From positions 35,393 through 99,392 of the forward strand of contig MSHB01000022.1 in assembly GCA_001940985.1 (NCBI GenBank): DNA of 64,000 bases. Direction: 5' to 3'. Shown in pieces: positions 10,301-23,243 of the stretch. The stretch is from Mollicutes bacterium Phil14 (lineage in GTDB: Bacteria > Bacillota_I > Bacilli_A > ML615J-28 > CAG-698). The position numbers and the translations under genes are program-made. Position 1 is the stretch's first letter. Each line of letters begins with the position of its first letter. Below the pieces are notes generated by a model that saw nothing but the letters and a program-made list of their open reading frames with translations, made no database searches and was not told the DNA's origin.

Positions 10301-11976
10301 CCATAATCACTATTATCACCAACTAAAGAAATAGTTGAGTCTATAAAATTAATATTTTTAATTGTTCCCTTGTTTATACCTACTAATCCATAATACACTT
10401 CTTTTTCTGTATAGTGAGAAGTAGTAATATTTAAATTCAATATACACTTATTATTATTGGTATTTGAATCTAAAGAAAAATCATCATCTCCACCTTTTAA
10501 AACTCCTTTAAATTCCGTTTTAGGAGTAGGATAATTAACATTTTTCATATCTATGTTATTATTTAAAACATATGTATGTTCATTAAATTGCTTTCCATAT
10601 GTTTTGCTTTTTAAAGATAAAAGTTTTGAAAATGTAATTAAATCAATATCTTTCTTTATCAAGTAACAATTATTACTTTCATCATATTCTAATCCAAAAA
10701 TTTGAGGCAAACTATCGCTTGCATAGAAATGCCATATTCTCTCATCATTTATTCCCTTTGAACTTAAGCTTACACTATTAATGTTTATATTTTCACCAGT
10801 AGTTATTTTTTCACTACTATATGCGCTTATTCCCAAAACATCAAGATTATCAGTACTAATCAAATCATCGTTATAGCAAACCCCACTAATCTCCCCACTG
10901 TTTTCGCAGACAATAGGATAACTTTTAAATAAATAACTTGAACCACTACTTACTACCCTTTGACTAATGTAATAGGAATTATAAATCTTACCTGTTTTGT
11001 TATTTTTATTTACTAAACCACTAGCATAAAATGTTTGTGTTTGTACTGCTCCTAATTGCAAATTCCAAATAATACCTGAATCATCCAAAGATACACCTGA
11101 ACTAATTTTAGTGCGTTTATCTATAACTGCAGTATTATAAACTAATCCATTATTTTCTCCAACCAAAATTGATGTATTAGTTAATCCATCAGGAATATCT
11201 AATAATTCAAAAATAGGATTTTCAATTATTAAATTGCAAATTATTCCACTTTCACCAACACTTGCAAACATTGAATAATAGTTATTAAGTGCAATATCTA
11301 CTTCTGTACTTTGATCATCTTGATTAAATCTGTAAATCATTGATATATAGTCATATCCAGCCAAATATAAATTCTTTATTTTAAAACCATTACCATCAAA
11401 ACTTCCCGTGAATGGATAATAGTTTCTAGTTTTTTCTTCATCAGGAGTAATAAAATCAATTCCTAATGGAATAAATTGTTTTGACTTCATTTTCGAATAA
11501 TCAATATCATTTATTAAACAATAATTAAAACTTAAAATTGTTTTTATTGTTTTTAAATTTGGATAAATATTAGCTGTTGCTTTATTTTTCCAATTATAAC
11601 AAGCATCAACTGATAGATAGTATAACTCTTCAGGAGTTGATATCGTTACTCGTTTGTCTAAAACAAACTCATTTATTTCATCACTCATTTTTTCATCTCT
11701 AACTGAAGATGATAAAGATGAATCATTCATATACTTCTCAATTATATTATGAATACTATTGTAATCTACCATCTTTTCACTACTAGTAGATTCACTATTA
11801 ATTAAAGCATTAAAAAAAGAAAAATCATTACTAAATTTACTATCAGCAGATACTTTTATGCTATTACCTTTATCAATGAATACACATAAAAATATAAAAA
11901 CAATGATGATAAAAGTTAACAATAATCCTAAACTTTTCTTTGAAATATTTTTAAAATTCATATTAGCACCTACCAA
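4327..11976 (-). CDS. Giant (2549 aa) N-terminally anchored or secreted surface protein. It is rich in Ser/Thr/Asn/Gly and has many G-G-(I/V)-(V/I)-G-type repeats. Putative beta-helical adhesin or matrix protein.
   Basis: Uninterrupted 7.65-kb ORF with an N-terminal hydrophobic signal or anchor (LGLLLTFIIIVFIFLCVF). It has dozens of motifs such as VAGGIVG, CIGGIVGYGSG, YYGGIIGGSS, CAGGIIGN and YVGGVFG. There is no LPxTG motif and no C-terminal TM. Its start overlaps the stop of the upstream TasA-like gene by 7 nt, indicating co-transcription. Confidence 0.8.
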   Translation of the reverse strand: MVGANMNFKNISKKSLGLLLTFIIIVFIFLCVFIDKGNSIKVSADSKFSNDFSFFNALINSESTSSEKMVDYNSIHNIIEKYMNDSSLSSSVRDEKMSDEINEFVLDKRVTISTPEELYYLSVDACYNWKNKATANIYPNLKTIKTILSFNYCLINDIDYSKMKSKQFIPLGIDFITPDEEKTRNYYPFTGSFDGNGFKIKNLYLAGYDYISMIYRFNQDDQSTEVDIALNNYYSMFASVGESGIICNLIIENPIFELLDIPDGLTNTSILVGENNGLVYNTAVIDKRTKISSGVSLDDSGIIWNLQLGAVQTQTFYASGLVNKNNKTGKIYNSYYISQRVVSSGSSYLFKSYPIVCENSGEISGVCYNDDLISTDNLDVLGISAYSSEKITTGENININSVSLSSKGINDERIWHFYASDSLPQIFGLEYDESNNCYLIKKDIDLITFSKLLSLKSKTYGKQFNEHTYVLNNNIDMKNVNYPTPKTEFKGVLKGGDDDFSLDSNTNNNKCILNLNITTSHYTEKEVYYGLVGINKGTIKNINFIDSTISLVGDNSDYGKVIYAGIVSAYLSSGNIKNITNRVNENTNYFDFSNSGLGKTCIGGIVGYGSGNISYVCNLNGAIDGSATHNYTDYNTSLEYYYGGIIGGSSEKGLRVEYAYNNANIKTINNVITENEVVICAGGIIGNMNNNSETSNEYFYLTNDGSINGAIDNSASANIYVGGVFGKSNNGIKISKNNRDLISGRFENNGIIVSKYNASTKNYLAGIGVNTSDISKVSFSYMINNAGFEIENYNSYNNNRNIYYSSTILDNGNGIILSRAYNEASYTYDSTFFNESVESINISSFFMSVNDKECELLYCQNNGNITIDGGENNVNGEMKVAGITLANKVDYKNVSMCGNIIVNGICNNKDIYISGISWILPSLNNKTYKAINCINEGKIITSNISGNTSISGVSGTSQTSTSFRATINSNNLYVAGLFNLNVGSITNSMNRADITSDDGNGATIIGTCNTFVGGIVTFNYNFIQDCANSGDITYINSSSGTTYVAGGDTPNCLYGGLVFAYNGGLALGGVVSAMADTSATILAGYSDEVVEPAQIVDSSNNGNISGKANQYVRSGGILAVALGVELTAGTASIDSSNNGQKKFSWCTVGNGDRIANCKLSNGLNFGNITAISNKIGNLDGTRVTSGQNNGSGTSQGRRPGIFACSGGVISYGLCIMTRMLNHGVIVSTDVAGGIVGATYVLGSADTSNLTITYCNIDTAIHYGKVKAAKYSNYSNFTYTVLKDITNSNYMNNSSDTSYIYKDENTFIFPSQSVSLSLYPNARRGFGGIFGRLQRGNSGVMQSNNFVNILNMDSKVDMIGRVDGSSYGAYIFYRLKVTGKEDTYYSARSNDTTQALVVGYTTGSTTTSELVNALTDSDIKSITITRSFWGNNYTYRITSVTLDSLEYEEITTSTRRYAPYNENINGNNYTSNYATETVQRTVKKQSSDNKTISLNTTINGNVVVSGNTSVSNLNYSSNRATVTNPSNVASLLQNNISIGSNSSSSTISQYQIEIVTDDKSDTSKTYIFSDSFPLMDSEQANYIYAASNDVLADRFKNETSLNYKPNGMYVLATTKGRDAGDVLPGNLKIDDLYKLNEKDEIKYIDLSNVSSKDLIDSGLNVEEMLLDYKSMFQISYSDKSLIQQKDDNGSTLYDLVLYDKNNNSPILRGGLVGSDEYGLPTITFTVSNSAFNFVNNKTDLNYYVKSAVLSENAVIAKYGITANEHHDFRNYYNLRSSNVLDGIYEASISGTLTKNSRLEFEDKIRVYSEIACNVSSLVEKYVTDYKIIIECVSEELSVDFSAVVDSASSIVDSITNGYIIKNNVSPDGKVECLFTDNNGVLASEYELSVIGLYRENTLIDSAYYKLEIVKLNNRQFGFTISFSNKLISGEYEIRYRYYDNIIEDYSIFITKEKSQYYNITNVFYNTFSYDISGNILEFLEEKDTDFITYIQFGYMFSKVKYGLTNSIDLTIETINNLEEISYLNNVDSYVIKIDDTEIERIYVSEFSKLIKTSVYYTYTNGNREYVMTYVIENEVGSINTIVHRIVEREPDNIVVYKNNNIQYGTTFIVYREDLLTTFDIDFGFEIDREVLNGQIKMLLDEIVFDEEEMKSKIYLNIGTYYSVNITSLLEPGSKGYKFILVRDGEEKEMLSIVIDKLLGKSAYLEDIDFQLDSDTTLVYPNIYEVDMLGNKISNTLYDARTYYGGIDYDGADNDNVRYFRIDGKVTNISLDDYSPSFTNPIGSSIYRYTGSNWDGSDTNNWSTELKGDFIGNDEEKDTVILYKIVSEDGESTVYYFITASDILYNLTIRFTIYYRFANGNIVLGSDPSSPIKNQVVVITIKNYQLQGDLADYSVTIDPNDPNHIIYPYEASELDKEGITKYITGLNNQMSMFYYPIDATKYQYSFGRNYSGCYGFTAITPKYKGESNGTLINGRRYEYDIYLATGSKGTYGWNSDSYKLHDLDLNNKYDGKYHFISGSTKNRIREFALVVNEKTSGGNWGLTDEDISWDK

Positions 11977-12680
11977 TCAGTGTCCCAAGGGGTTTTTTCC
12001 AAATCCCAATTATTTTGTGCCCCATCATAATATTGTACTGCTTCGATAATAAATCCAATTTGAAGAAAATATCTACTATCTCTAGTACCAAACATTTTAT
12101 CCGAATAATATTCTTTAATTAAAGGAATTACTAAAGGAGAACTTTCATTAACTCTCTTTACTTTTTCCATACAATAAATAAAGCCATCTTTTTCTCTATT
12201 ATCATAAAATAGGCCACTACTAGATGATTTAAAATTATAATTAAAATCTGTATACCCATCTTGTACAACAGCTAATTCACGAGTAACATCTCCAGTTTTA
12301 TAAAGTAAAGTAAGCTGTTCATATGTAGCAACTCTAAAATATGTATCAACATCACTATATACTTCAACATCAACTCTAAAATTTTCAGCAAAATATATAT
12401 CATCACGAGCAGATATATTAATCTTCACAACTCCAGTTTTAGTAAAATCACTATCTCCTAAATCAGCAGTATAATAAACGGGATCATATATATTACCATC
12501 CTTTTCAAAATAGGTTTTTAATCTTACCTTAACAGTCCCAATGACATACTCTTTATTTTCATTAATTCTACTAGTAATATAAGCAACTGTAGTGCCTACA
12601 AATAGCAAAAAGAATAGTACAATAGCACCAAACATTACTGCCTTTTTAAATCTTAATTTATTTATAATCAAAACAGTCAC
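11970..12680 (-). CDS. Secreted protein with a SipW-cognate-type N-terminus (TasA/camelysin-like paralog).
   Basis: 236 aa. N-terminal basic region, hydrophobic helix, then GTTVAYITS (compare TasA GGGTWAAFND and CalY GGGTFAYFSD). Overlaps the giant gene start. Confidence 0.5.
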   Translation of the reverse strand: MTVLIINKLRFKKAVMFGAIVLFFLLFVGTTVAYITSRINENKEYVIGTVKVRLKTYFEKDGNIYDPVYYTADLGDSDFTKTGVVKINISARDDIYFAENFRVDVEVYSDVDTYFRVATYEQLTLLYKTGDVTRELAVVQDGYTDFNYNFKSSSSGLFYDNREKDGFIYCMEKVKRVNESSPLVIPLIKEYYSDKMFGTRDSRYFLQIGFIIEAVQYYDGAQNNWDLEKTPWDTDW

Positions 12681-12767
12681 TCCTTTCTAAAAACATAAAT
12701 GGGTATTGAAAAAAGCCAATACCCAACCAAACTCTTTAATTAAATAATTGTTAAATAGTATTGAGTA

Positions 12768-13268
12768 TCATTCATCCTTTTGATGTGTTTTTAACAATTT
12801 GTATAATGAATTAAACAAAATCACTAGTACAACAATTATTGCTATTGACAATATAACGAAAGGATTTCTAATAAAATTTATTATAAATCCTAATATAGGA
12901 ATTGAAAAAGCATATATACCTTTTACTTGGCTAGCCTTTATTGGGGCATCATTAGCACTATTTTCATCTATACCTTTAGTTATTATTATATCTTTTTCTT
13001 TATCATAACTAATAACTCGATGAGTAACTGCCTTTCCATCTTCTCTTTCATAAGTTATAATAGTATCATTTTTTATTACGTCATAAACATCACTTTCAGA
13101 AATCTTTTTATAATACATAAGCGAACCTGTATAAATACGTGGTTCCATACTACCTGAAAGTACAATTTTTGCGCGATAATTACATATGTATAATCCTAAA
13201 GAAAATACTATTATAACTGCAAAAAGTCCTATTAATATATATTCAACAATATTTATTACTTTTTTCAT
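12768..13268 (-). CDS. sipW: Signal peptidase I, SipW (ER/archaeal) type.
   Basis: 166 aa. N-terminal TM, catalytic Ser box VLSGSMEP (near-identical to the Bacillus subtilis SipW box), a His box (THRVIS) and a C-terminal TM anchor. Confidence 0.8.
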   Translation of the reverse strand: MKKVINIVEYILIGLFAVIIVFSLGLYICNYRAKIVLSGSMEPRIYTGSLMYYKKISESDVYDVIKNDTIITYEREDGKAVTHRVISYDKEKDIIITKGIDENSANDAPIKASQVKGIYAFSIPILGFIINFIRNPFVILSIAIIVVLVILFNSLYKLLKTHQKDE

Positions 13269-13278
13269 TTTTACTTAT

Positions 13279-13881
13279 CTATTTTGCAAGCCCTGTTGTA
13301 AAATCAATATTTGCCATATTTTCCCATAAAACATATTCTGCTTGTTTTCCTTCAACTACAATAGTAATTGTATATGATTTCCCAGAATAATCATTTCCTA
13401 CTTTGCTTCCATCAAAAGTCATATTTACATTAAAATTTAAAACATCACCAACAGAAGGAACTGTAGCAGCACTAATATTAGCACTATCATCAGTTAATGA
13501 AGTAGGTTTTCCTTTATAATACCAGTAATCACCATCATTTACCCAATCAGAATTTTCATCAAAAGTTATTTCAACTATATCAGTTATTAAATCTGTTTTA
13601 TCTTTTTCAGTAACAGTTATTTTCACTCTTACGTTTGTAGCTACAGTTGATTTATTAGTAATAGTAATAGCATCAGCATTAAAAAGAGGTTGACCAGGTA
13701 CTACTATACTATCACTATTAATATTAAACTGACATTCGTAATTAACATCACCCATAACAAAGTTAATGTTTGAAGTCTTTGTGTCTGTTAACCATGCTAG
13801 AGTTGTTGCTACAAGACCAGCAAGCAAAACAACAATAGCACCACTTAAAAGTATAATTTTCTTTTTTAAATTCTTTTTCAT
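13279..13881 (-). CDS. TasA/camelysin-like secreted protein (SipW-cognate signal peptide).
   Basis: 200 aa. N-terminus ...LLAGLVATTLAWLTDTK. The C-terminal strand TIVVEGKQAEYVLWEN resembles the TasA C-terminal FSFEATQWNG. Confidence 0.6.
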   Translation of the reverse strand: MKKNLKKKIILLSGAIVVLLAGLVATTLAWLTDTKTSNINFVMGDVNYECQFNINSDSIVVPGQPLFNADAITITNKSTVATNVRVKITVTEKDKTDLITDIVEITFDENSDWVNDGDYWYYKGKPTSLTDDSANISAATVPSVGDVLNFNVNMTFDGSKVGNDYSGKSYTITIVVEGKQAEYVLWENMANIDFTTGLAK

Positions 13882-13892
13882 ATTTTTTCCTC

Positions 13893-14501
13893 CTAAGAAA
13901 TATCTATGGCAAAACCTAATTCATTCCATTCAACATAATCTTTTTGTTTTGCTTGAAAAGCTATTTTTATTATTAATTTTACATTTCTGTTTCCCATATT
14001 ACCATAGTTGTCACCATTAACACTTAAACTTTCTAGTACCGTGATACTTGTGCTTTCAGAACCCTTTATTACACTACCACTAATACTATCGCCATCAATA
14101 ATTCCACCATAATACCAACATCCTTTAAAATAAACCCAATCATCACCAATACTAGCTTTTATTTGTTGATTATTGGTATCATCAAATCCATTCCACTTCT
14201 CATTATCAATTGGACTATTTGCATCAGTAACAAATTGATAAAAAAGTTGAAACCTTATTTCAGAATCCACACTACTATGATTTGTTAGTATATATGGGTC
14301 ATTAATCAATGGTTTTTCAGGAACAATATAATCTTGTTCACATAAATTACCAACCAAATCATAACGAACTTCTCCACTAACAAAAACAATAGAGCTACTT
14401 CTTCTTAAAGAAATAAGCCATGCATATGAAGATGTGGCAAGCGTTATAGCTAAAATGAAAAGTGCTATTATGCTAATCAAACTTTTAGCATTTCTTTTCA
14501 T
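13893..14501 (-). CDS. TasA/camelysin-like secreted protein. It is the first gene downstream of c-di-GMP riboswitch copy A.
   Basis: The ORF track gives 13893..14534, but the first 11 codons would lie inside the riboswitch aptamer. An internal ATG at 14501-14499 is preceded by GGAGGA (MKRNAKSLISII...). N-terminus ...LAITLATSSYAWLISLRR. C-terminal IKIAFQAKQKDYVEWN. Confidence 0.6.
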   Translation of the reverse strand: MKRNAKSLISIIALFILAITLATSSYAWLISLRRSSSIVFVSGEVRYDLVGNLCEQDYIVPEKPLINDPYILTNHSSVDSEIRFQLFYQFVTDANSPIDNEKWNGFDDTNNQQIKASIGDDWVYFKGCWYYGGIIDGDSISGSVIKGSESTSITVLESLSVNGDNYGNMGNRNVKLIIKIAFQAKQKDYVEWNELGFAIDIS

Positions 14502-14502
14502 A

Positions 14503-14600
14503 CAATCCTCCGTTTTCTGGCGACTGGCTGTCATACACTAATTAGCTTCAGACCCTATAGTTTTGCGTCATCACTTTTCAGTGATTTTGCCTTTTTCTTT
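14503..14600 (-). promoter_or_regulatory. c-di-GMP-I (GEMM) riboswitch, copy A.
   Basis: Minus-strand RNA AAGGCAAAAUCACUGAAAAGUGAUGACGCAAAACUAUAGGGUCUGAAGC...GACAGCCAGUCG. It has GGCAAA, a perfect 6-bp hairpin capped by a GAAA tetraloop, then GACGCAAAaCUAUAGGG (receptor-like). This matches the Vc2 pattern GGCAAACCAUUCGAAAGAGUGGGACGCAAAGCC. About 75% identical to copy B at 23141-23215. Confidence 0.8.
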
Positions 14601-15242
14601 TTTTATATCCTCAAGTATTTTTTTCCTGATTTTTTCTCTTTCTGCTTCAATAAATTTTTGTTTTTCTTCATCATTTTTCTTATTTTGACTAGCGATTTTT
14701 TCCTCTTTAACCGCTATAAACATTTTTCCTATTTCAATGATTAAAAGAAAGAAAAACAATAACATTAAAATTAAAAATATTAAACTTCTGTGATTTGCAA
14801 TTAAACCACCAATTTTAAACAGTGTTAAAACCTTAACAACTTTTCCCACATAATTTTCCTTAGTAACAAACTCTGTATCAAAAGTACTATTATTAACACC
14901 TTTCATAATAAACGAACCATCTAAATTAACATCAACAATTCTATGAACTATATATATCTTATTGCTTTTTGAATAATAAATAATATCATCACCAATTGTT
15001 AATTTTTCAAATGGCACTTCTTTTGAAAGAATGAAATCACCTTCATTTATTACAGGTTCCATTGAATCAGTTGGTACAACCGAATATATATAACCAAATA
15101 TTTTTGTAGGTTTGTTGTTTTTATAAGCATTAATTCCAACGATTATTATGGCAATAGCCAAAACAAACAATAAACAAGTAAATATCCCTAAGCATTTGCT
15201 GATGATACTTTTTACTTTAGGTTCTTTCATACTATTCACCAA
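14571..15242 (-). CDS. SipW-type signal peptidase I paralog with a C-terminal TM and a charged tail.
   Basis: 223 aa. N-terminal TM, VVPTDSMEPVINEGDFIL Ser box, IVHRIVDV His box, then a second TM (LIFLILMLLFFFLLII) and a K/E-rich tail. The last about 10 codons overlap the riboswitch A aptamer. Confidence 0.7.
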   Translation of the reverse strand: MVNSMKEPKVKSIISKCLGIFTCLLFVLAIAIIIVGINAYKNNKPTKIFGYIYSVVPTDSMEPVINEGDFILSKEVPFEKLTIGDDIIYYSKSNKIYIVHRIVDVNLDGSFIMKGVNNSTFDTEFVTKENYVGKVVKVLTLFKIGGLIANHRSLIFLILMLLFFFLLIIEIGKMFIAVKEEKIASQNKKNDEEKQKFIEAEREKIRKKILEDIKKEKGKITEK

Positions 15243-16017
15243 TACTATTATCTATTATCAAATTTTTAATAACTAATCTTTGATTAGAATAAAACCTGCC
15301 ATCAAAAGATATATCACTAGGAATAATATCTTGATATATACTAGGAAAAATGGGTTCTGGTTGAAACTTTACTGTAAAATATAGCACTACATTTTTGCCA
15401 GCTTCTAATTTAAAATCTTTTAGTAAATAATAATTAGTTAAATCCTCGCCTTCACTATTAATAGTGTTAAAGTATGTAAATTCAGGACTAATCATACTAT
15501 TAGTTGTAATCTTTTTCCATCCCCATTCCTCAATTTTTTCATCGCTTGGAACAGTGATTAATTCATTTTCTTTTTCTTTTATTTCTGTTTTATACGGAAC
15601 TTCAACAAGCAAATCGCATCTATAACTATATGAATATTGTATCTTTTCATAGGCATTTTGATAATCACTTGTAAAGACTCCATCATTAAATCTTTCAGAA
15701 TGCAAATCAGAAAAATAAACATTTAAATTACAAACATCTTTACTTGTATTAGAAAGTATCAAAAGAAATATATTCATCTCTCCTGGCATCGCTTTTTCAG
15801 CAGTATAAGTATCAGATTGAATAATATTGTTACCTATAACTTGTGAGAACTGATATTCATAACCGTTTTCTCCAACACTAGCCACAAAGCTAGCACTATT
15901 ACTTTTAACAGTTACAAACCAAGCATAACCAACACTAACAAAAGCTATTAAAGATAATATGCATGAAAACAAGGCCATTAAAAACATTTTATTTTTAAAC
16001 ATTTTTCTCATCACCAT
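15232..16017 (-). CDS. TasA/camelysin-like secreted protein (SipW-cognate N-terminus).
   Basis: 261 aa. N-terminus ...LIAFVSVGYAWFVTVKSN. Overlaps neighbours at both ends. Confidence 0.55.
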   Translation of the reverse strand: MVMRKMFKNKMFLMALFSCILSLIAFVSVGYAWFVTVKSNSASFVASVGENGYEYQFSQVIGNNIIQSDTYTAEKAMPGEMNIFLLILSNTSKDVCNLNVYFSDLHSERFNDGVFTSDYQNAYEKIQYSYSYRCDLLVEVPYKTEIKEKENELITVPSDEKIEEWGWKKITTNSMISPEFTYFNTINSEGEDLTNYYLLKDFKLEAGKNVVLYFTVKFQPEPIFPSIYQDIIPSDISFDGRFYSNQRLVIKNLIIDNSIGE

Positions 16018-18010
16018 TTTGGTCCTTATTCATTAGTTTAATTAATTTATCTTTATTTTTGCTTTTTTCTTCGTTAGCTTTTTCAATTTCTTTTTGTTTC
16101 AATTCTTTTCTAACTTTTTCTGTTTGTGAGCGAGATTTTTCTTTTTCTTTCAACTTAAATTCTTTAATTTTTTTATCTTGAATTTCTTTTTGTTTTAATT
16201 TCTTTTCTTTTTTAGCCTTTAAGATTTTATCTAAATTAGCTTTTTCCAAAGCAATAATATCATTAACTTTCTTTGAATGAGCAGCTTGCATTTCTTTAAT
16301 TTTTTGTTTAGTTCTTTCTTTTTCATTTTTACTAATTTCACGCATCTTCTCTTTCAAAGTATCATTTATTAGTTTAAGACTATTCTTTGAGTCTTCCTTA
16401 GCCTTAACAACCTTTATTTTTTTACCATCTAAAGTTACCACACTAGAAGTAGCTTTAGCCTTAGCTTTTTTGTATATATCTATTTCTTTATCTAAATTAT
16501 TCTTAACTTCAAAAATAGCATCTTCATTGGTTTTTCCTTCTAAACTTTTAATAAGTTTAGTACTGGCTTTAGCCATATCTTTATTAAGACGTTTCTCAAG
16601 TCGAATTGCATTGTTATAATCAACTTCTTTTACTTCTCTAATTATCTTAGCAATTTGAGCTTTCTTTTTCGTTTCATCAAACTCTTCTTTAGGATCAACA
16701 TCCTTAACAAGTCTTGTAAATATATCTTCGTCTTCTAATTCAAAATATGATTGATATAAAGCATTAGATATATTATTCACCATGCGAATTGCTTGCTTTA
16801 ATGCAACTTCATCACTTGATGCTGTTTTTTTAAATTCATCTATGTTTTTCTTAAACATATTTTTATATTGTTTTAAATAATATTCATTTATACTATTATC
16901 TTCCTTAGAAAGTACTTCTGGATTAGTGATGATATCATCTTCATTTTTCTTAATCTGTTTAGCACTTTTCTTAATTGTCTTTTCATCACTCTTACCATCA
17001 AACTTTGTCTTTCTAACTGATTCATTAGCCTCACTAGAAAGATAGGCAAGCATTGCTGTTTGATTAAATCCATGTTCTATTTTTTTATCTATTTTTTTGT
17101 TCTTTTCTTTTACTATCAAATCATATGCCAACTTATTATATTTATCTAAAAACAACCACAACATATAGCAATTTTTAAAATCAGGATTTTTCATAATAAT
17201 ATTTGTTTGCATAATTGGAGGATTAACTTTAGGGGCATTAATCAATTTCTTGTATAACTCGGAATTTTTATATGCCATTATCATACGATTTAATTTTTCA
17301 ACACGCTTTAGTAAATATAAATTATTTTTTTCGTTTTGACTATTAACAGTTTTCTTGATTACCACATCAACATTTATATTTACCGAAGCATTGTTAATGT
17401 TAAAGTCAGACGATATATTAACATGATTTTTGTTTGATGATAAAACATTATCTTTAATAACATTGTATCTGTTATTTACAAAAACAAACAATCTATCTAT
17501 CAATGTTTTAATAAATCTATTTTCATAAATTGAGAATTCTTGTTCCGCATAACTTGTTAAAATCTTTTTGGGAATTACGTAATTTCCATCTCTTACTTCT
17601 TTTACAAAATGTGTATGTGAAGCAAGATGTCTTACTGATTCAGAATTAATTTTCTTAGCCTTTTCAACAGGAACTATTTCTTGCTCATATCTGATTCCTG
17701 TTTTAGGAGTGTTTGCAATCTTATCAATACTTGGAAAATATGATTCTAATGTTTTTATCCATTCTTCATCAAAAACTTTTGTTTCAATAATATCTTTTTG
17801 ATATATAACTCTATCACCAGATAAATATGAATCATAGAAAAGTTTGGCAAAAGCACTATCCACTTCTAATTCATCTAAATTAGTAGAAACTGTCTCAAAA
17901 TATTCATCTATATCCAAATCATCTGAATTTAAATCTAAAGGAGTTGCCTCACTTTCTTCTTTTTCTTTTTCGTTAACAAAGATATCGTCCATAGCAACCT
18001 CCTTAAACAA
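15995..18010 (-). CDS. 671-aa acidic, coiled-coil protein. Partner of the adjacent McrB-family NTPase. Function unknown.
   Basis: Acidic N-terminus (DLNSDDLDIDEYFE), a central globular region and an extremely K/E-rich predicted coiled-coil C-terminal half. No signal peptide. It sits 6 nt downstream of the AAA_5 gene. Confidence 0.6.
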   Translation of the reverse strand: MFKEVAMDDIFVNEKEKEESEATPLDLNSDDLDIDEYFETVSTNLDELEVDSAFAKLFYDSYLSGDRVIYQKDIIETKVFDEEWIKTLESYFPSIDKIANTPKTGIRYEQEIVPVEKAKKINSESVRHLASHTHFVKEVRDGNYVIPKKILTSYAEQEFSIYENRFIKTLIDRLFVFVNNRYNVIKDNVLSSNKNHVNISSDFNINNASVNINVDVVIKKTVNSQNEKNNLYLLKRVEKLNRMIMAYKNSELYKKLINAPKVNPPIMQTNIIMKNPDFKNCYMLWLFLDKYNKLAYDLIVKEKNKKIDKKIEHGFNQTAMLAYLSSEANESVRKTKFDGKSDEKTIKKSAKQIKKNEDDIITNPEVLSKEDNSINEYYLKQYKNMFKKNIDEFKKTASSDEVALKQAIRMVNNISNALYQSYFELEDEDIFTRLVKDVDPKEEFDETKKKAQIAKIIREVKEVDYNNAIRLEKRLNKDMAKASTKLIKSLEGKTNEDAIFEVKNNLDKEIDIYKKAKAKATSSVVTLDGKKIKVVKAKEDSKNSLKLINDTLKEKMREISKNEKERTKQKIKEMQAAHSKKVNDIIALEKANLDKILKAKKEKKLKQKEIQDKKIKEFKLKEKEKSRSQTEKVRKELKQKEIEKANEEKSKNKDKLIKLMNKDQNGDEKNV

Positions 18011-18015
18011 AACAA

Positions 18016-19572
18016 TTAGCTATTTTTAATAAAATTTTGAATACAATTAATACTTTCTAAGCAAGTATTTTTACCAAACAATTTGTCAAGTAAAGTAATT
18101 AATTGATTTAATTCTTCATGTAAGAAACTTAAATTTAAAGTTTCAAATTTTCTTATAACTTTATATGCCAAAAAGTAATCTAAACCTTGAACATCAGTTC
18201 CACCACACGCTACATAAACTGGAACAAATGTATTAATTTGTTTCATAATACGATTACCAAAAGTTATCTTAAACTCTTTAGTAATAAATTCATCTAGTTT
18301 TTGAATCTTTTCCACTAATTTCGCATCAAGTGGATATGCTTTTATTCCTTCTTGAAAAAGGTGCTCCATATATTCATAATTCATATTAACATTTTCTGTG
18401 TATGGTGCATCAATTAATTCAGCACGGGCATCCATTTCAATAGTTGTTGCACGATCATAAACTTTATCAGTAATTGTAAATGTTGAATCATCACGGTTAG
18501 CTGTACCAACAAACCAAACATTTTGAGGAATCAATAATTTTCCATCAACTAGTTTCTTAGGATCATTTGCTAAAGTATCTGGAACCAAATCTATTTTCCA
18601 TTCATTCTTATCTGGCATTTCCATTATTGATAAAAACTCAGCAAAATAATACTCAATTCTAGCTAAATTCATTTCATCTAAAATAATGAAATTCATATCA
18701 TCGCGATAGCTAGTTTCATAAACAGCTTTCAAAAAATCAGTTTCATTAAACTTTTTAGTGAATTCATTCAAATATCCAATTAACTCAGTTCTATCTCTCC
18801 ATGAAGGTTGAACAGAACAAATTGCCGCATCGTTTTTAAAAAACTTTCCCATCGCATACGGTAAAGATGTTTTACCAGTACCAGATATACCTTGTAAAAT
18901 CAAAATTTTGCTTGTGGCAAGTCCAGCGAAATATGCTCTAATAACTTTTTTATCATAATACAAATGTAATTGTGACGCTGAAAAATTAATAAATCTATTA
19001 ACTAATTCTTGTAAATTAAGCATATCATCAGGTCCCATCATAATTGATGTAATCTTTGTTTTGTATTCTTCATCAACAGCACTAAGTTTAATAAATCTTA
19101 AATCGCTAACAACTTTTTTGTCTTTAGACATTTCATTAGTAAGATTTTCTTCATCACTTTTTTCAGAATAATTATTCACACCACCAAGACCTAAATTAGA
19201 AACCTTTAATGCTAAAATCTTATTCTTTTCATCAATCAATTCTGCAGTCTTAGTATTTAATTGTGATACTTCTTCTAATAAGTCATCTTTCTCTATTTCT
19301 CTTCTTACAAATCTAACATATCTTCTAAGAATTTGGAAAATTCTCAAACCTAAGAAAATAAAGAAAGCAACTATTATAAGCATTGTAATAATTTCACAAA
19401 TCCAATCAAGAGCATTAAACTCATTACTGCCATTGATTAAATCTTCAAAATAACTAACAATATCTTTAAAAAATGCATGAGAAAATGCCTCCCATAATCT
19501 TACAAAGAACATCTTGAAATTATAGAAAAATGTTCTTAAAAAACCTATGAAATACCTAGCGAAGTTTACCAT
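18016..19572 (-). CDS. Membrane-anchored McrB-family (AAA_5) GTPase/ATPase.
   Basis: 518 aa. N-terminal TM (ITMLIIVAFFIFLGLRIF). Walker A ILQGISGTGKTS. McrB-type Walker B with NxxD region FIILDEMNLARIEYYFAEFL (compare McrB IDEINRANxxxxFGEL). Sensor motif VWFVGTANRDDSTFTITDKVYDRATTIEM (compare McrB IIGTMNTADRS). Confidence 0.7.
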   Translation of the reverse strand: MVNFARYFIGFLRTFFYNFKMFFVRLWEAFSHAFFKDIVSYFEDLINGSNEFNALDWICEIITMLIIVAFFIFLGLRIFQILRRYVRFVRREIEKDDLLEEVSQLNTKTAELIDEKNKILALKVSNLGLGGVNNYSEKSDEENLTNEMSKDKKVVSDLRFIKLSAVDEEYKTKITSIMMGPDDMLNLQELVNRFINFSASQLHLYYDKKVIRAYFAGLATSKILILQGISGTGKTSLPYAMGKFFKNDAAICSVQPSWRDRTELIGYLNEFTKKFNETDFLKAVYETSYRDDMNFIILDEMNLARIEYYFAEFLSIMEMPDKNEWKIDLVPDTLANDPKKLVDGKLLIPQNVWFVGTANRDDSTFTITDKVYDRATTIEMDARAELIDAPYTENVNMNYEYMEHLFQEGIKAYPLDAKLVEKIQKLDEFITKEFKITFGNRIMKQINTFVPVYVACGGTDVQGLDYFLAYKVIRKFETLNLSFLHEELNQLITLLDKLFGKNTCLESINCIQNFIKNS

Positions 19573-19599
19573 AATTTATCCTCTTTCAAGAAGAAATAA

Positions 19600-20391
19600 T
19601 TACTCTTTTATTTCTTCATTTTTTTCTTTTTTTTCCAATTCTGCTAGAAGTTCAGCACGCATCTTTTCTTTTTCATTTTCTAATTCAGCTTTAATGCGAG
19701 CAAGTTCATCTTCATGTTCCTTCATCATTGTTTCTTTATTCTTATGATTTTTAATTCTTAAAAAATTCATTACAAGCATTATTGCTTCAAAAACAAAGAA
19801 CAATGCCGTTGGCAATACTATACAAAGCAAGAATCCATTTGATGTTTGCAAGAACTTCATTGTATTGCCTGCACCAGTCCATTTACCAGTATAAACAGCT
19901 TTAATATCTTCATATGATATAGTTTCAAATTTAGCACTACTTAAGTTATCAGGATCATATTTGTATGCAGGGTTCATAGCATATTTATCACCTTGAGTTC
20001 TTATATATTGCTTACCATCACTACCTGTAGAAAAATCTACAATTCTGTGGGTATTAAGAATTGTTCTTCCTATCTCATCAGAATAATAGGCAAATGTAAC
20101 TATATCTCCAATTTCTAATTTACTAACTATTTTTTCTCTATTTTTTTCAGTTATAACTTTAACAAAGATTAAATCTTTTGGAGTAAATGAATCTTCTTCT
20201 TCTCCATCCATTGACGAAGTTTGAACTGTTAAATATCCTTTACCAAAAATACTTGGAATATCTAATTCAGTCTTCATTCCTAAATTACTAATTGAAAATA
20301 TTAATAATATTGCAACGAATAGATAAAACACACAATTCAATACAACACTAACAACCTCCCACCATTTTTTTTCTTTTTTCTCTTCTAACAT
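19600..20391 (-). CDS. Divergent SipW-type signal peptidase paralog with a C-terminal TM and coiled-coil tail.
   Basis: 263 aa. N-terminal TM, Ser box YLTVQTSSMDGEEED (the SM is retained but the usual EP is replaced by DG plus an acidic insert), His box NTHRIVDF, then a TM and a K/E-rich coiled coil. Confidence 0.6.
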   Translation of the reverse strand: MLEEKKEKKWWEVVSVVLNCVFYLFVAILLIFSISNLGMKTELDIPSIFGKGYLTVQTSSMDGEEEDSFTPKDLIFVKVITEKNREKIVSKLEIGDIVTFAYYSDEIGRTILNTHRIVDFSTGSDGKQYIRTQGDKYAMNPAYKYDPDNLSSAKFETISYEDIKAVYTGKWTGAGNTMKFLQTSNGFLLCIVLPTALFFVFEAIMLVMNFLRIKNHKNKETMMKEHEDELARIKAELENEKEKMRAELLAELEKKEKNEEIKE

Positions 20392-20419
20392 ATTGTCCTC
20401 TTTCTAAAACGAAGTTTTA

Positions 20420-20454
20420 TGTATAACAGAGGCAATTAAATGCTTCTGTTATAC
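20420..20454 (-). promoter_or_regulatory. Intra-operon stem-loop (13-bp stem) between the TasA-like genes and the downstream SipW paralog.
   Basis: Minus-strand GUAUAACAGAAGC-AUUUAAUU-GCCUCUGUUAUAC with one mismatch. No U-tract follows, so it is a candidate partial terminator, attenuator or processing site. Confidence 0.35.
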
Positions 20455-20478
20455 ATATTTAATTTTTAAAATATTTTA

Positions 20479-21381
20479 TTAATTTTCACCTAATGTTAAA
20501 CCTAATTTTACTGATAAAATTTGTTTGTATAATGCGTTAATGCAATCATAATCATATCCTTCAAGCCATACAATTACTGTAACTTTTGTAGCTGTTTTTG
20601 AAACAGTACCTAATTTTATATCAGCAGTTCCATTAATTGCTTGTGTAGTATAATTAGTTGAAGCAGGAATATTTGTACTAGTAATTTCAGTTCTAGCCTT
20701 TAAGTAGCCCATTGCTCCAGTTGTATCAGTGTTTGTTTGTAATCCGGCTGTATTATCATTTTGGCCAGCGCCTTTTTCTAAAATAACAGCAGTATTAGTT
20801 CCTAATTTCACCATAACTCTAGCGGCGTTACTAACTTTAAATTTTTCTGTTGCTGTACCTTGCTTAATATCATCACCAACAGTCTTATCAGGTGTCCAAG
20901 AAGAGTTATTACCAGCACCTTCAGTAATTAAAGAATTTGATAAATCTAAATATAATTCTTCTGTATCTTTAGAAGAATCTTGAGCTAATCTAACAGAAAA
21001 TTCTAATTTTAAAATACCAGCAGTTCCTAATATATCTTTAGCATCAGCTAAAGTTCCAATATCAGTTAATGATGCAGATTTTTTTACTGAATCAATTGCA
21101 AATTTTTTAAATTTGCCGTCATTATATGTAACATCGTTAAATGAAACAAAGTTTGCGCTCTTTAAATTAGTGAAATCATCAGAAGTGATTGAAGTTTTCC
21201 AATTAGTATCATCTATACTTACTTCAATACTTCCATCACCAGCTTTAACGCTACCTTCAAATGGATCTACAGAAGCAGTTCTACTTACTACTAACCATGC
21301 ATAAGTACTTGTTCCTAATGCTATAACTGCAAATGCTACAGCAAGACATGCAATAAATAATTTTCTTGATAATTTTTTCAT
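20479..21381 (-). CDS. TasA/camelysin-like secreted protein.
   Basis: 300 aa. N-terminus ...AVIALGTSTYAWLVVSRTAS. The C-terminal VIVWLEGYDYDCINALY motif is shared with the 329-aa and 232-aa paralogs. Confidence 0.6.
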   Translation of the reverse strand: MKKLSRKLFIACLAVAFAVIALGTSTYAWLVVSRTASVDPFEGSVKAGDGSIEVSIDDTNWKTSITSDDFTNLKSANFVSFNDVTYNDGKFKKFAIDSVKKSASLTDIGTLADAKDILGTAGILKLEFSVRLAQDSSKDTEELYLDLSNSLITEGAGNNSSWTPDKTVGDDIKQGTATEKFKVSNAARVMVKLGTNTAVILEKGAGQNDNTAGLQTNTDTTGAMGYLKARTEITSTNIPASTNYTTQAINGTADIKLGTVSKTATKVTVIVWLEGYDYDCINALYKQILSVKLGLTLGEN

Positions 21382-21411: not shown

Positions 21412-22401
21412 TTAATAAGTTTTTTTAGGGGAATAACTTGAACCCATAAATTTTAATTGAACCATTACATTATCTGCAAATATTGCATTAAAGCAATCTG
21501 CATCCCAACCTTCAAGCCATATGTTAACTTTTACTTTTGCTACGTAACTTGGTGTGCCGTCACTATTTATAACTTTTTGAAACCTTGCACACATTGAATC
21601 ATCAGTTTTTGCCTCATATGGATTTTTAAATGTTGTTAGAGAATACTTGGTGTTTGGATATTCTTTAGGAGGATTAAGAATAGTCAATCTTTTTGAATAA
21701 TACTCAAAAGCTCCTGTTTGTACTCCATAACCCATTTTTTCATTTTCACTCGGATCATAAATAATCGAAAGCAAATCTTCTTTTTCATTAACACCAAACT
21801 CATTTTCCAAATTTTCTTCTATGATTGCAATTCTTATTGCGTTTGCAGCATAGTAAGACCCAATTGAACCCTTTTTTATATCTTCTTCTCCATAAGAGAA
21901 GTCAATATCAGATACCCATTTAACCCCCTTCGACACAACAAATGTACCATCAACTTTTTTTGTTTTTGCAATTTCATATGTTATTTCATGACTAACATTA
22001 TCCACCAAAAACAATTCTTTACTTGTTGGATTATCTGTTTTAAACCATAAATCAAAAGATATATAATTATCTTTAGCATCCTTGATTTCTTCACCTTGTT
22101 TAGTAAAGAATTTCTTTCCATCAAGCGAAGTAACATTATATAACTTCGGATTTTTACCAATGATTTTTTCTAAATCTTCTTGTTTTAAACATTCAGAATA
22201 ATTCTTTCCATCAAGTGATACATAAAAACCCGATTCCGCTATAACATTAAGTTGTGCATCTTCAAGTAGCGCTTCATTACTCAATGTTATCCAAGCAAAT
22301 GTTGCTTGACTAAATGCTAAAAACGAAAACATTACTGCGAAAAGTGAAAAATAAAATTTTCTTGTTATATTTTGAATTATATTATTTTTCATCTTTCTCA
22401 C
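21412..22401 (-). CDS. TasA/camelysin-like secreted protein.
   Basis: 329 aa. N-terminus ...FLAFSQATFAWITLSNE. C-terminal VNIWLEGWDADCFNAIF. Confidence 0.6.
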   Translation of the reverse strand: MRKMKNNIIQNITRKFYFSLFAVMFSFLAFSQATFAWITLSNEALLEDAQLNVIAESGFYVSLDGKNYSECLKQEDLEKIIGKNPKLYNVTSLDGKKFFTKQGEEIKDAKDNYISFDLWFKTDNPTSKELFLVDNVSHEITYEIAKTKKVDGTFVVSKGVKWVSDIDFSYGEEDIKKGSIGSYYAANAIRIAIIEENLENEFGVNEKEDLLSIIYDPSENEKMGYGVQTGAFEYYSKRLTILNPPKEYPNTKYSLTTFKNPYEAKTDDSMCARFQKVINSDGTPSYVAKVKVNIWLEGWDADCFNAIFADNVMVQLKFMGSSYSPKKTY

Positions 22402-23080
22402 CAGAATCGATTGCTGAGAATTTCATTTGAATCTTAATCTGACCACCTAATATATCACTTGTTGTATCAGGATCTTGACCTTCTAGCCACATAAATACTG
22501 TATATTTTATTACTTGGTCAGGAAAGAAACCATAAATCTTATCACGCATTATCAATCTTTCATTAACAAATTCTAAACAATCAGGGATATCTTCATACTG
22601 TGCTTCTTTATCATCTTTTGCCATAAATAACATTTCTCGAGAGACACCATCAATTTCTGTAATCACCATAAACCTTATTGCTTTATCAACATTTTTCTTA
22701 ACAGAAGTTATTTGAACATAATAACGCAAATCCGTTGACTGACTACCAAAATTTTTAACATAGAAAGTATATGCCAAATATTTAAAATTTGGATCATTAT
22801 AACTTCCTTCTGCTTTCTTAGCTTCTTCAATATTTAGCATCGTGTATGTTATATCTCTAGCATCGTAAACCGCATCAGCTTGTATTAAAGAGCTAGGATT
22901 AATAAAATCTTTAGTCTGTGACATATATATTTGTTTTTCTTTTAAGTCAGGATCAATTGACATAACAAAATTACCAACATTAGATCCATAAAATGTTAAT
23001 ACTGCAATTATAACTAGTGCTATTCCAAAAACAGTTATTCCCATTTGAAGAAACTTTTTATTCTTAAAAAATGCATTCAT
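22382..23080 (-). CDS. Secreted or anchored protein of the same paralog family (shared C-terminal motif). It is the first gene downstream of riboswitch copy B.
   Basis: 232 aa. N-terminal TM. C-terminal YTVFMWLEGQDPDTTSDILGGQIKIQMKF aligns with the IWLEGWDxDC motif of the 300- and 329-aa paralogs. GAGGTGGTGAG ribosome-binding site. Confidence 0.5.
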   Translation of the reverse strand: MNAFFKNKKFLQMGITVFGIALVIIAVLTFYGSNVGNFVMSIDPDLKEKQIYMSQTKDFINPSSLIQADAVYDARDITYTMLNIEEAKKAEGSYNDPNFKYLAYTFYVKNFGSQSTDLRYYVQITSVKKNVDKAIRFMVITEIDGVSREMLFMAKDDKEAQYEDIPDCLEFVNERLIMRDKIYGFFPDQVIKYTVFMWLEGQDPDTTSDILGGQIKIQMKFSAIDSGEKDEK

Positions 23081-23087
23081 TATGTCT

Positions 23088-23217
23088 CACCACCTCACTT
23101 GAAACAAAAAAGCCAGAAATCTCCACAAAAAATTTGAGATAACTGGCTACCATTTCAGGCCCTATAGCTTTGCGTCACAACCTTTCGATTGCTTTGCCTT
23201 TAACATATACGCTTATT
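23088..23217 (-). promoter_or_regulatory. c-di-GMP-I (GEMM) riboswitch, copy B, with a terminator-type expression platform.
   Basis: Minus-strand aptamer AAAGGCAAAGCAAUCGAAAGGUUGUGACGCAAAGCUAUAGGGCCUGAAAUGGUAGCCAGUU. It contains GGCAAA, a hairpin with a GAAA loop and GACGCAAAGCUAUAGGG. Then comes the hairpin GCCAGUUAUCUC...GGAGAUUUCUGGC followed by UUUUUUGUUU. The terminator's 5' arm overlaps the aptamer's 3' end. Confidence 0.85.
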
Positions 23218-23243
23218 ATACTATGTTTTGGGCTATTTGTCAA
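23215..23243 (-). promoter_or_regulatory. Near-consensus sigma-A promoter (TTGACA, 17 nt, TATAAT) driving riboswitch B and its operon.
   Basis: Minus-strand TTGACAaatagcccaaaacatagTATAAT. The riboswitch GGCAAAG begins about 16 nt after the -10 element. Confidence 0.7.

Follow-up and report, generated by a model that had tools for sequence, protein, structure and literature searches.

The window analysed here is a stretch of 64,000 nucleotides from Mollicutes bacterium Phil14 (assembly GCA_001940985.1, contig MSHB01000022.1, positions 35,393-99,392). Its G+C content is about 27%, and nearly all of its genes are carried by the minus strand, as are all features described below, for which coordinates within the window are given. 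Three genes code for signal peptidases of the endoplasmic reticulum (ER) type, which we name, like the other proteins of the window, by role and length: SP263 (19600..20391; 263 amino acids), SP223 (14571..15242; 223 amino acids) and SP166 (12768..13268; 166 amino acids). SP263 and SP223 belong to a core operon and are separated by genes coding for a McrB-like GTPase (18016..19572; 518 amino acids) and for a protein with the McrC N-terminal domain DUF2357 but no nuclease domain (15995..18010; 671 amino acids). SP166 is encoded in an accessory unit, and the genes of seven secreted or anchored proteins accompany the peptidases. The original prediction for this DNA, centred on the peptidases and their cognate proteins, overlooked the GTPase and DUF2357 genes, which define the system.

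The motifs on which that prediction was based were all located, KIVLSGSMEP and AVTHRVI in SP166, VVPTDSMEP and YIVHRIV in SP223, and VQTSSMDGEEEDSF and NTHRIV in SP263, and the positions of the open reading frames (ORFs), the family model TIGR02228 and comparison with human SEC11A confirmed three ER/archaeal-type Ser-His peptidase genes. TIGR02228, the NCBIfam model of archaeal-type signal peptidase I (ER/archaeal type, MEROPS S26B; cut-off 51.85 bits), was passed by SP166 (78.9 bits, E 3.6e-22) and SP223 (81.4 bits, E 6.3e-23). None of the three peptidases reached the cut-off of 190 bits of NF046067, the equivalog model of Bacillus SipW, for which the best score was 81.7 bits (SP166) and SP223 scored 63.6 bits; judged by these models they are SipW-type in the broad sense only, and not SipW equivalogs. 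A Pfam scan of the three proteins gave only S26/S24 matches, all of them sub-threshold. Human SEC11A and SEC11C were matched directly by the single sequences of SP166 and SP223. A family profile built from 31 relatives of SP263 matched SEC11A (E 4.6e-14), with the Ser-Met, His-Arg and Gly-Asp pairs aligned, and hhalign related it to the canonical SipW-type profile with a probability of 99.9% (E 3.7e-31).

Each peptidase has one N-terminal and one C-terminal hydrophobic segment. In both core classes, those of SP263 and SP223, the protein ends in a second transmembrane (TM) helix followed by a helical tail of 40-60 amino acids rich in lysine and glutamate (K/E-rich), which in SP263 is roughly 50 amino acids long, while members of the 166-amino acid class extend by only about 15 residues beyond the TM segment. 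A tail motif, LExEKEK[IM]Rx[EQ][IL]L, recurs in the 263-amino acid class (36/68 members with the strict pattern), and the tail of SP223 contains a stretch resembling it. The AlphaFold2 model of SP263 has a pLDDT (predicted local distance difference test score) of 83.7 overall and above 90 across the catalytic domain, and comprises a TM helix at the N-terminus, a beta domain and a single long helix (residues 184-262) formed by the second TM segment and the tail. A Foldseek search with this model returned SEC11C as best PDB match (7p2q_A, E 3.3e-4, probability 1.0), followed by the C-terminal domain of lambda repressor, so that the fold predicted for SP263 is the signal-peptidase/LexA-like beta fold.

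The catalytic residues were compared in a joint alignment of the three peptidases, four Bacillaceae proteins named signal peptidase I by NCBI, one of them SipW, and SEC11A. The columns of the Ser, Met, His and box-E Gly residues are invariant in this alignment. In all three peptidases, SP263 included, the nucleophilic Ser of box B (Ser-Met) is in register with Ser56 of SEC11A, and the general base of box D (His-Arg), a His and not a Lys, is in register with His96. A misaligned Ser and His in SP263, which would have counted against the original prediction, was thus not observed. The key residues of SP263 are Ser60-Met61, His115-Arg116 and Gly134-Asp135. Residue counts taken from MAFFT columns anchored on SEC11A, for 68 members of the 263-amino acid class and 57 of the 223-amino acid class, show how widely these positions are kept. 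Ser56, Met57 and His96 are each present in 67/68 and 57/57 members, respectively; the corresponding numbers are 60/68 and 49/57 for Arg97, 64/68 and 57/57 for Gly115, and 63/68 and 44/57 for Asp116.

According to the original prediction, SP263 lacks the conserved Glu-Pro of box B and might therefore have altered specificity or a non-catalytic role. Box B does differ, but the loss of Glu-Pro is the result of a class-wide insertion, SMxG[DN]xx[DN]SF, found in 41/69 locus members of the 263-amino acid class, whose carriers keep the Ser/His/Gly-Asp core. In the hhalign alignment the residues DGEE of SP263 form a four-residue insert, and in the Asp-Ser-Phe that follows, the Asp aligns with the canonical Pro and the Phe with a canonical Phe or Leu. 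The canonical form, SMxP[TV]F, is retained by the Izemoplasmatales members of the class. A search of 1.84 billion cluster representatives with the class profile found 1,025 proteins at E <= 1e-30. The pattern SM...H[RKT] is kept in 141 of the 142 best new representatives; an SMxG-type insert is present in 86 of these 141, SMxP in 24 and other inserts in 31. Much longer insertions after the Ser-Met pair, of up to about 50 residues, were seen in three relatives' loci, here labelled L001, L002 and so on (L056 1382-2788, L057 546-1547 and L064 340-1281; proteins of 313-468 amino acids), so that box B appears to be an insertion hotspot of this class.

The catalytic oddities of SP263 and SP223 appear to lie in box E rather than in the missing Glu-Pro. 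In human SEC11A the triad is Ser56/His96/Asp122, and Asp116 forms a structural salt bridge with Arg97, as described in the literature; reviews give the SipW triad as Ser47/His87/Asp106 and hold that one of the two Asp residues suffices in archaeal enzymes. SP166 has both Asp residues in its box E (KGIDENSAND), with a one-residue insertion relative to SEC11A. In SP223 (KGVNNSTFD) an Asp occupies the Asp122 column and Val replaces Asp116, a substitution common to five members of its class. SP263 keeps the Gly-Asp pair, which is followed by a loop of roughly 15 residues and by Lys154 in the column of the triad Asp. Two residues past that column, Glu156 is a conserved acid in the subclade of the window, within the motif [YF]-[EQ]-x-[VI]. 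The third catalytic residue of SP263 may be Glu156 or another acid, or the enzyme may work with a Ser-His dyad. Because Ser, Met and His are near-invariant across the class and the insertion is class-wide, a non-catalytic role is disfavoured, and SP263 is probably an active enzyme of a conserved, specialised subfamily rather than a relic. A decayed copy was considered and rejected, as the catalytic core is conserved in 67/68 class members and 141/142 database representatives.

Pairwise identity among SP166, SP223 and SP263 is only 22-27%, and the 263-amino acid class is monophyletic in a neighbour-joining tree (68/68). On these grounds the three peptidases are best regarded as old, separately maintained paralog lineages and not as a recent local expansion. 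The earlier description of three paralogs within 8 kb therefore stands as far as paralogy is concerned, but not as a local expansion: two are old core components and one is a rare accessory copy.

The 518-amino acid protein matches Escherichia coli McrB (PDB 6hz4, E 4.4e-5) over the Walker A, Walker B and signature motifs, as well as the PADLOC model PDC-M26A (E 7e-38). Its Walker A motif reads GISGTGKTS, its Walker B motif ILDEMN, and its signature N359-x-D361-D362, which is invariant across the four GTPase orthologues compared. In the McrB-like NxD clade the NxD motif is usually followed by E or a second D (Bell et al. 2024), and by its motifs the protein is assigned to the McrB-type AAA+ GTPases of this clade. 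One TM segment (residues 52-84) is followed by a strongly conserved, heptad-like juxtamembrane stretch resembling a coiled coil. The 671-amino acid protein combines DUF2357 (PF09823, E 3.3e-10) with a long K/E-rich C-terminal region; no TM segment was found in it, and it had no sequence match in the PDB. Among its 22 orthologues DUF2357 was matched by 11 and a nuclease family by none.

Three homologues of SP263 (P0006, P0032 and P0064, with 66, 48 and 31% identity) sit in loci of identical gene order. When GTDB species genomes were searched with the GTPase alignment, at least 578 matches were confirmed, and the loci of the best 80 of these, together with the homologue loci, were compared, each count including only those loci with enough flanking sequence. 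The best 80 belong mostly to Acholeplasmataceae, Anaeroplasma, Mariniplasma and Izemoplasmatales, with a few records titled Clostridia, and include that of the cultured Acholeplasma granularum ATCC 19168, whose locus is L038. A stable order was observed across about 80 loci: an EAL/GGDEF gene, a GGDEF-EAL gene, T232, T329, T300/T329, the 263-amino acid class peptidase, the GTPase, the DUF2357 protein, optional small secreted proteins and the 223-amino acid class peptidase. The 263-amino acid class lies directly upstream of the GTPase in 60/67 loci and DUF2357 directly downstream of it in 62/70. The 223-amino acid class is found at most 3 kb downstream of the DUF2357 gene in 45/47 loci, directly adjacent in 28. 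Median gaps around the GTPase/DUF2357 pair are 35 (between the 263-amino acid class and GTPase genes), 14 and 19 nucleotides. Further upstream, the T232 class was recorded in 35/37 loci and a GGDEF/EAL homologue in 22/37. Of all genes of the locus, that of the GTPase is the best conserved (74, 61 and 42% identity in three compared loci).

Some departures from this order concern the DUF2357 gene, which phmmer did not detect in L033, L035, L040, L042, L043 and L048. In L026 (Tenericutes bacterium HGW-Tenericutes-2) there is no DUF2357 match either, and the GTPase gene is followed by an ORF of 2,329 amino acids whose best match in the window is the giant protein of the accessory unit. The 166-amino acid class occurs in only 4/83 loci, and its copy in the window lies in the separate downstream unit. 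As judged by synteny, the 263- and 223-amino acid classes are fixed partners of the GTPase/DUF2357 pair, and the 166-amino acid form is a rare accessory copy.

Each of the seven secreted neighbours of the peptidases has one N-terminal hydrophobic segment. The core operon begins with T232 (22382..23080), a secreted or anchored protein, and continues with T329 (21412..22401), a putative fibre subunit whose signal peptide ends in ..SQATFAWITL, and T300 (20479..21381), putatively the main fibre subunit, with a signal peptide ending in ..ALGTSTYAWLVV. A C-terminal motif, WLEGxDxD, is common to these three proteins. T261 (15232..16017; ..VSVGYAWFVT), encoded between the DUF2357 protein and SP223, is a secreted, optional component of the core operon. 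The accessory unit codes for T213 (13893..14534; ..LATSSYAWLIS), T200 (13279..13881; ..VATTLAWLTD, a signal peptide of the SipW-dependent type) and T236 (11970..12680; ..VGTTVAYITS), all secreted.

The signal-peptide end of the T329 and T300 classes, ..ALGT[ST]T[FY]AWF[TS]L, is highly conserved (64/67 and 23/26), A[WYF][LIVFM] being present in 64/67 members of the T329 class, and looser versions of it occur in T261, T213, T200 and T236. The description of the seven as cognate proteins of the peptidases held in part: by eye, six of them share [ST]x[FYLV]A[WY] at the end of the hydrophobic segment, but T232 differs, and the model of the SipW-dependent-type signal peptide, TIGR04088, was passed by T200 only (20.2 bits, cut-off 19). 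T232 carries the N-terminal motif ..LTFYGSNVGNFV.. and its class has a motif of its own, TFYGxNxGNFV, in the general form ..[VI]T[FY]YG[QN]NxGNFV. No protein of the window matches the TasA/camelysin family PF12389, which is matched by just 3 of 78 orthologues of the secreted proteins (best E 3.3e-6); one orthologue weakly matches the BsaA family, and the similarity to fibre-subunit folds is weak. Substrate specialisation among the three peptidases, as proposed originally, is plausible. The box-B type of the 263-amino acid class showed no covariation with the cleavage motif (P1 residue) of its presumed substrates.

Two riboswitch aptamers of the cyclic di-GMP (c-di-GMP)-I family (RF01051) were identified, both well over the Rfam gathering score of 35 bits. 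The first (23135..23208; 62.6 bits, E 2.9e-10) occupies the leader of the core operon, between T232 and a perfect sigma-70-like promoter (23215..23243; TTGACA-17-TATAAT, 12/12 consensus positions) read from the sequence. A terminator-like hairpin, GCCAG...CTGGC followed by TTTTTTG (23103-23145), was recognised by reading the sequence alone, and because the 5' arm of this hairpin shares nucleotides with the 3' end of the aptamer, the core riboswitch is probably an ON switch. The second aptamer (14516..14601; 70.5 bits, E 3.4e-12) forms the leader of the accessory unit, lies between the SP223 and T213 genes and overlaps the last 30 nucleotides of the SP223 ORF. Since it also covers the mechanically assigned start of T213 (14534), translation of T213 probably begins at the ATG at 14501, which is preceded by GGAGG and gives a protein beginning with MKRNAKSL.

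Of 18 related loci tested, 17 have one or more such riboswitches upstream of the first gene, frequently as a tandem of two or three, and in six of them (L001, L009, L019, L022, L027 and L038) a second one follows the gene of the 223-amino acid class. A GGDEF-EAL protein of 490 amino acids (23281-24753) is encoded directly upstream of the core operon and, next to it, an 857-amino acid protein (24774-27347) whose EAL-containing C-terminal half matches phosphodiesterase models. Because each is headed by its own riboswitch, and GGDEF/EAL genes lie upstream, two c-di-GMP-controlled units are predicted: the core unit from T232 to SP223, and the accessory unit comprising T213, T200, SP166, a terminator-like site, T236 and a protein of 2,549 amino acids. 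The conservation of the riboswitches points to regulated fibre production rather than defence.

Some further features of the two units can be described. The terminator-like site, a hairpin with a T-run between the SP166 and T236 genes (12700..12725), may separate T236 and the giant protein from the remainder of the accessory unit. The 2,549-amino acid protein (4327..11976) has an N-terminal hydrophobic segment and no match in Pfam or NCBIfam; its gene overlaps the end of the T236 gene by 7 nucleotides, and its counterpart in L001, at the equivalent position, is 3,172 amino acids long. It may be a surface adhesin or a cargo of the accessory unit. Between the T300 and SP263 genes a stable hairpin is predicted (20418..20457; -22.6 kcal/mol, z -6.8), with about 16 paired bases and no clear T-run on the coding strand; at the equivalent position L002 has a c-di-GMP riboswitch (9773-9849). 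In L001 a further riboswitch (1668-1743) precedes the homologue of the 857-amino acid gene. A GGDEF protein is encoded at 215-1336, so that the window holds three c-di-GMP turnover proteins within 27 kb. The chromosomal surroundings of the locus are of housekeeping nature (FtsH, TilS, PheT). A Mur-ligase middle-domain protein (35153-36694) and a sulfatase-family, LtaS-like protein (41601-43703) are encoded nearby, which is mildly unexpected if the host is wall-less like its Acholeplasma-type relatives.

With moderate confidence we interpret the locus as a chromosomal surface-fibre locus of wall-less Acholeplasma-like bacteria, switched by c-di-GMP riboswitches and belonging to the CoCoPALM type of McrB-like systems discussed below. 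High c-di-GMP would open the riboswitches, and T232, T329 and T300, as related secreted subunits of predicted beta-sandwich fold, would pass through the membrane but stay attached to it by their signal peptides. At the outer face of the membrane the three peptidases, all of them most likely active Ser-His enzymes, would cut the special signal peptides just after ..T[FY]A. The N-terminus freed in this way would begin with W[FI][TS]L and could, by analogy with TasA, serve as donor strand for fibre growth. The cytoplasmic coiled-coil tails of SP263 and SP223 would dock on the juxtamembrane coiled coil of the GTPase/McrC-N complex, where GTP hydrolysis might gate or drive subunit processing or polymerisation, whereas SP166 would serve the accessory unit only. 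A more far-reaching proposal, which we advance tentatively, is that the locus encodes a new kind of filament-assembly machine, in which coiled coils would link a membrane-tethered ring of McrB-type GTPase, together with its McrC-N activator, to two dedicated peptidases. Donor-strand polymerisation in wall-less bacteria would then be gated or powered by GTP and turned on by c-di-GMP, the McrBC motor would have a task outside defence, and the SP263 class would act with a non-canonical third residue or a Ser-His dyad.

Several observations weigh against the surface-fibre interpretation. SP263 remains under the curated cut-off of TIGR02228 (33.8 bits, E 2.7e-8) and scores 40.3 bits with NF046067; Lys154 stands in the Asp122 column in multiple and in profile-profile alignments alike, and this column holds Asp in just 21/68 members of the class, compared with 48/57 of the 223-amino acid class. 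The docking of the tails on the GTPase complex is pure inference. The FtsB-like character of the GTPase N-terminus found little echo in Pfam: a weak DivIC match was obtained with the L002 orthologue only (E 0.043) and none with the GTPase of the window. Otherwise, relatives of McrBC serve in defence, and a PADLOC defence-candidate model is matched by the GTPase itself. Part of this evidence would fit a different role for SP263, that of a pseudo-peptidase serving as a membrane scaffold or adaptor that ties the secreted subunits to the GTPase through its tail, with cleavage left to SP223 and/or SP166. The low model score, a PDB search that returned nothing relevant for the single sequence, a box B without Glu-Pro and the poorly conserved Asp column occupied by Lys154 agree with such a role, as does the tail of Bacillus subtilis SipW, which has a peptidase-independent function. 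A pseudo-enzyme would, however, be expected to lose its Ser, Met, His-Arg and Gly-Asp residues, which are near-invariant among the 68 locus members and kept in 141/142 database representatives despite overall identities down to about 30%. The box-B insertion is itself a conserved motif covered by the high-confidence part of the modelled peptidase fold, and the conserved Glu156 lies two residues from the Asp column, so we regard a scaffold role as unlikely.

The affinities of the GTPase raise another alternative, namely that the locus belongs to the McrBC/CoCoNuT lineage of systems for defence against phages or stress. Infection would then be sensed by the GTPase pair, with the peptidases and secreted proteins acting as effectors or remodelling the surface. 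Other members of the NxD McrB clade are predicted defence systems (Bell et al. 2024), and the match to PDC-M26A points the same way. Yet the McrC-N orthologues are devoid of nuclease domains (22 examined), the chromosomal context is one of housekeeping genes, the gene order is stable across at least 80 species of one lineage instead of being patchy and island-like, and c-di-GMP riboswitches with GGDEF/EAL genes are typical of the control of adhesion and biofilms; a defence function is in our view decidedly improbable. Given that McrBC systems are commonly mobile, one might also suppose that the McrB-like/DUF2357 pair is an unrelated mobile insertion in an ordinary sipW-tasA-like operon, and that the three peptidases, which share one fold and face one cleavage motif in most of their predicted substrates, are redundant and interchangeable. 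This is very improbable, as the pair holds a constant position with short gaps in about 80 loci despite a divergence of their peptidases to 30% identity, the GTPase is more conserved than any other gene of the locus, and the two flanking peptidase classes are separately conserved, that of SP263 as a single clade. The low identity among the three peptidases likewise speaks against their interchangeability. The pair as an inserted defence island was rejected on synteny.

The surface-fibre interpretation has implications beyond this genome. McrBC GTPases are known as motors of restriction and defence, and no energy source is believed to be needed for the assembly of TasA-type fibres. The locus joins a McrBC-type GTPase with putative TasA-type fibre genes, an arrangement kept in hundreds of Acholeplasma-like species. 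Should this link prove functional, it would provide a non-defence task for a McrB-type GTPase, would explain how wall-less Bacillota build surface fibres regulated by c-di-GMP, and would establish two specialised signal-peptidase subfamilies, one of them with an altered active-site surround. As a member of a large, conserved class, the peptidase first singled out as divergent is itself ordinary; of more interest are the system that surrounds it and its third catalytic residue.

Among known systems, the tapA-sipW-tasA operon of B. subtilis resembles the locus in that an ER-type Ser-His peptidase is encoded among fibre proteins and that a special signal peptide ends in T-aromatic-Ala. The cytoplasmic C-terminal 20 residues of SipW have a second function, independent of its peptidase activity. 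The locus differs by having three peptidases instead of one, tails of roughly 50 amino acids of coiled-coil type on two of them, a GTPase/McrC-N partner pair, a four-residue insertion in box B of the 263-amino acid class, and riboswitch control in place of SinR/AbrB. With SEC11A/SEC11C (PDB 7p2p, 7p2q) the peptidases share the fold and the register of Ser56, His96-Arg97 and Gly115-Asp116, except that SP223 is without the salt-bridge residue Asp116. Asp122 is matched in SP223, matched with a one-residue shift in SP166, and replaced by Lys154 in SP263; no accessory subunits of the signal peptidase complex (SPC) are encoded in the locus of the window. Haloferax Sec11a/Sec11b and Methanococcus FlaK and EppA offer a precedent for several peptidases per cell that cut different surface-structure precursors, but these enzymes are not linked to a nucleoside triphosphatase (NTPase), and FlaK and EppA are aspartic prepilin peptidases outside family S26. 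Type IV pili and archaella follow the same logic, in that their filament subunits are encoded together with a leader peptidase of their own and a hexameric NTPase of the cytoplasm. The analogy is confined to function, the proteins being unrelated: a peptidase of the aspartic type, an ATPase of the PilB type and pilins of alpha-helical structure there, and an S26 Ser-His peptidase, an AAA+ McrB-type GTPase and predicted beta-sandwich subunits here.

The closest counterpart is the class named CoCoPALM by Bell et al. 2024 (eLife), who described this NxD McrB-like GTPase clade in one paragraph and deferred its analysis to a forthcoming publication; the supplementary files of the same CoCoNuT paper hold nothing on CoCoPALM, and among the later papers searched none uses the name or describes the combination. 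Three of the four CoCoPALM features are matched by the locus of the window: a NxD McrB-like GTPase, an adjacent McrC homologue (DUF2357) with a K/E-rich region of coiled-coil type, and signal-peptidase-family genes adjoining the pair (upstream in 60/67 and downstream in 45/47 loci); as to the fourth, a FtsB-like domain of TM and coiled-coil type fused to the GTPase, a TM segment and a coiled-coil-like stretch are present, but the FtsB-like assignment was not confirmed by Pfam. Nothing in Bell et al. 2024 contradicts membership, and on the strength of these gene features the locus is assigned to this named, barely described class. Our analysis goes beyond the published description in five respects: two distinct peptidase classes flank the pair, one of them carries an insertion in box B, the secreted subunits are conserved, control by c-di-GMP riboswitches is predicted, and such loci are concentrated in Acholeplasmatales and Izemoplasmatales.

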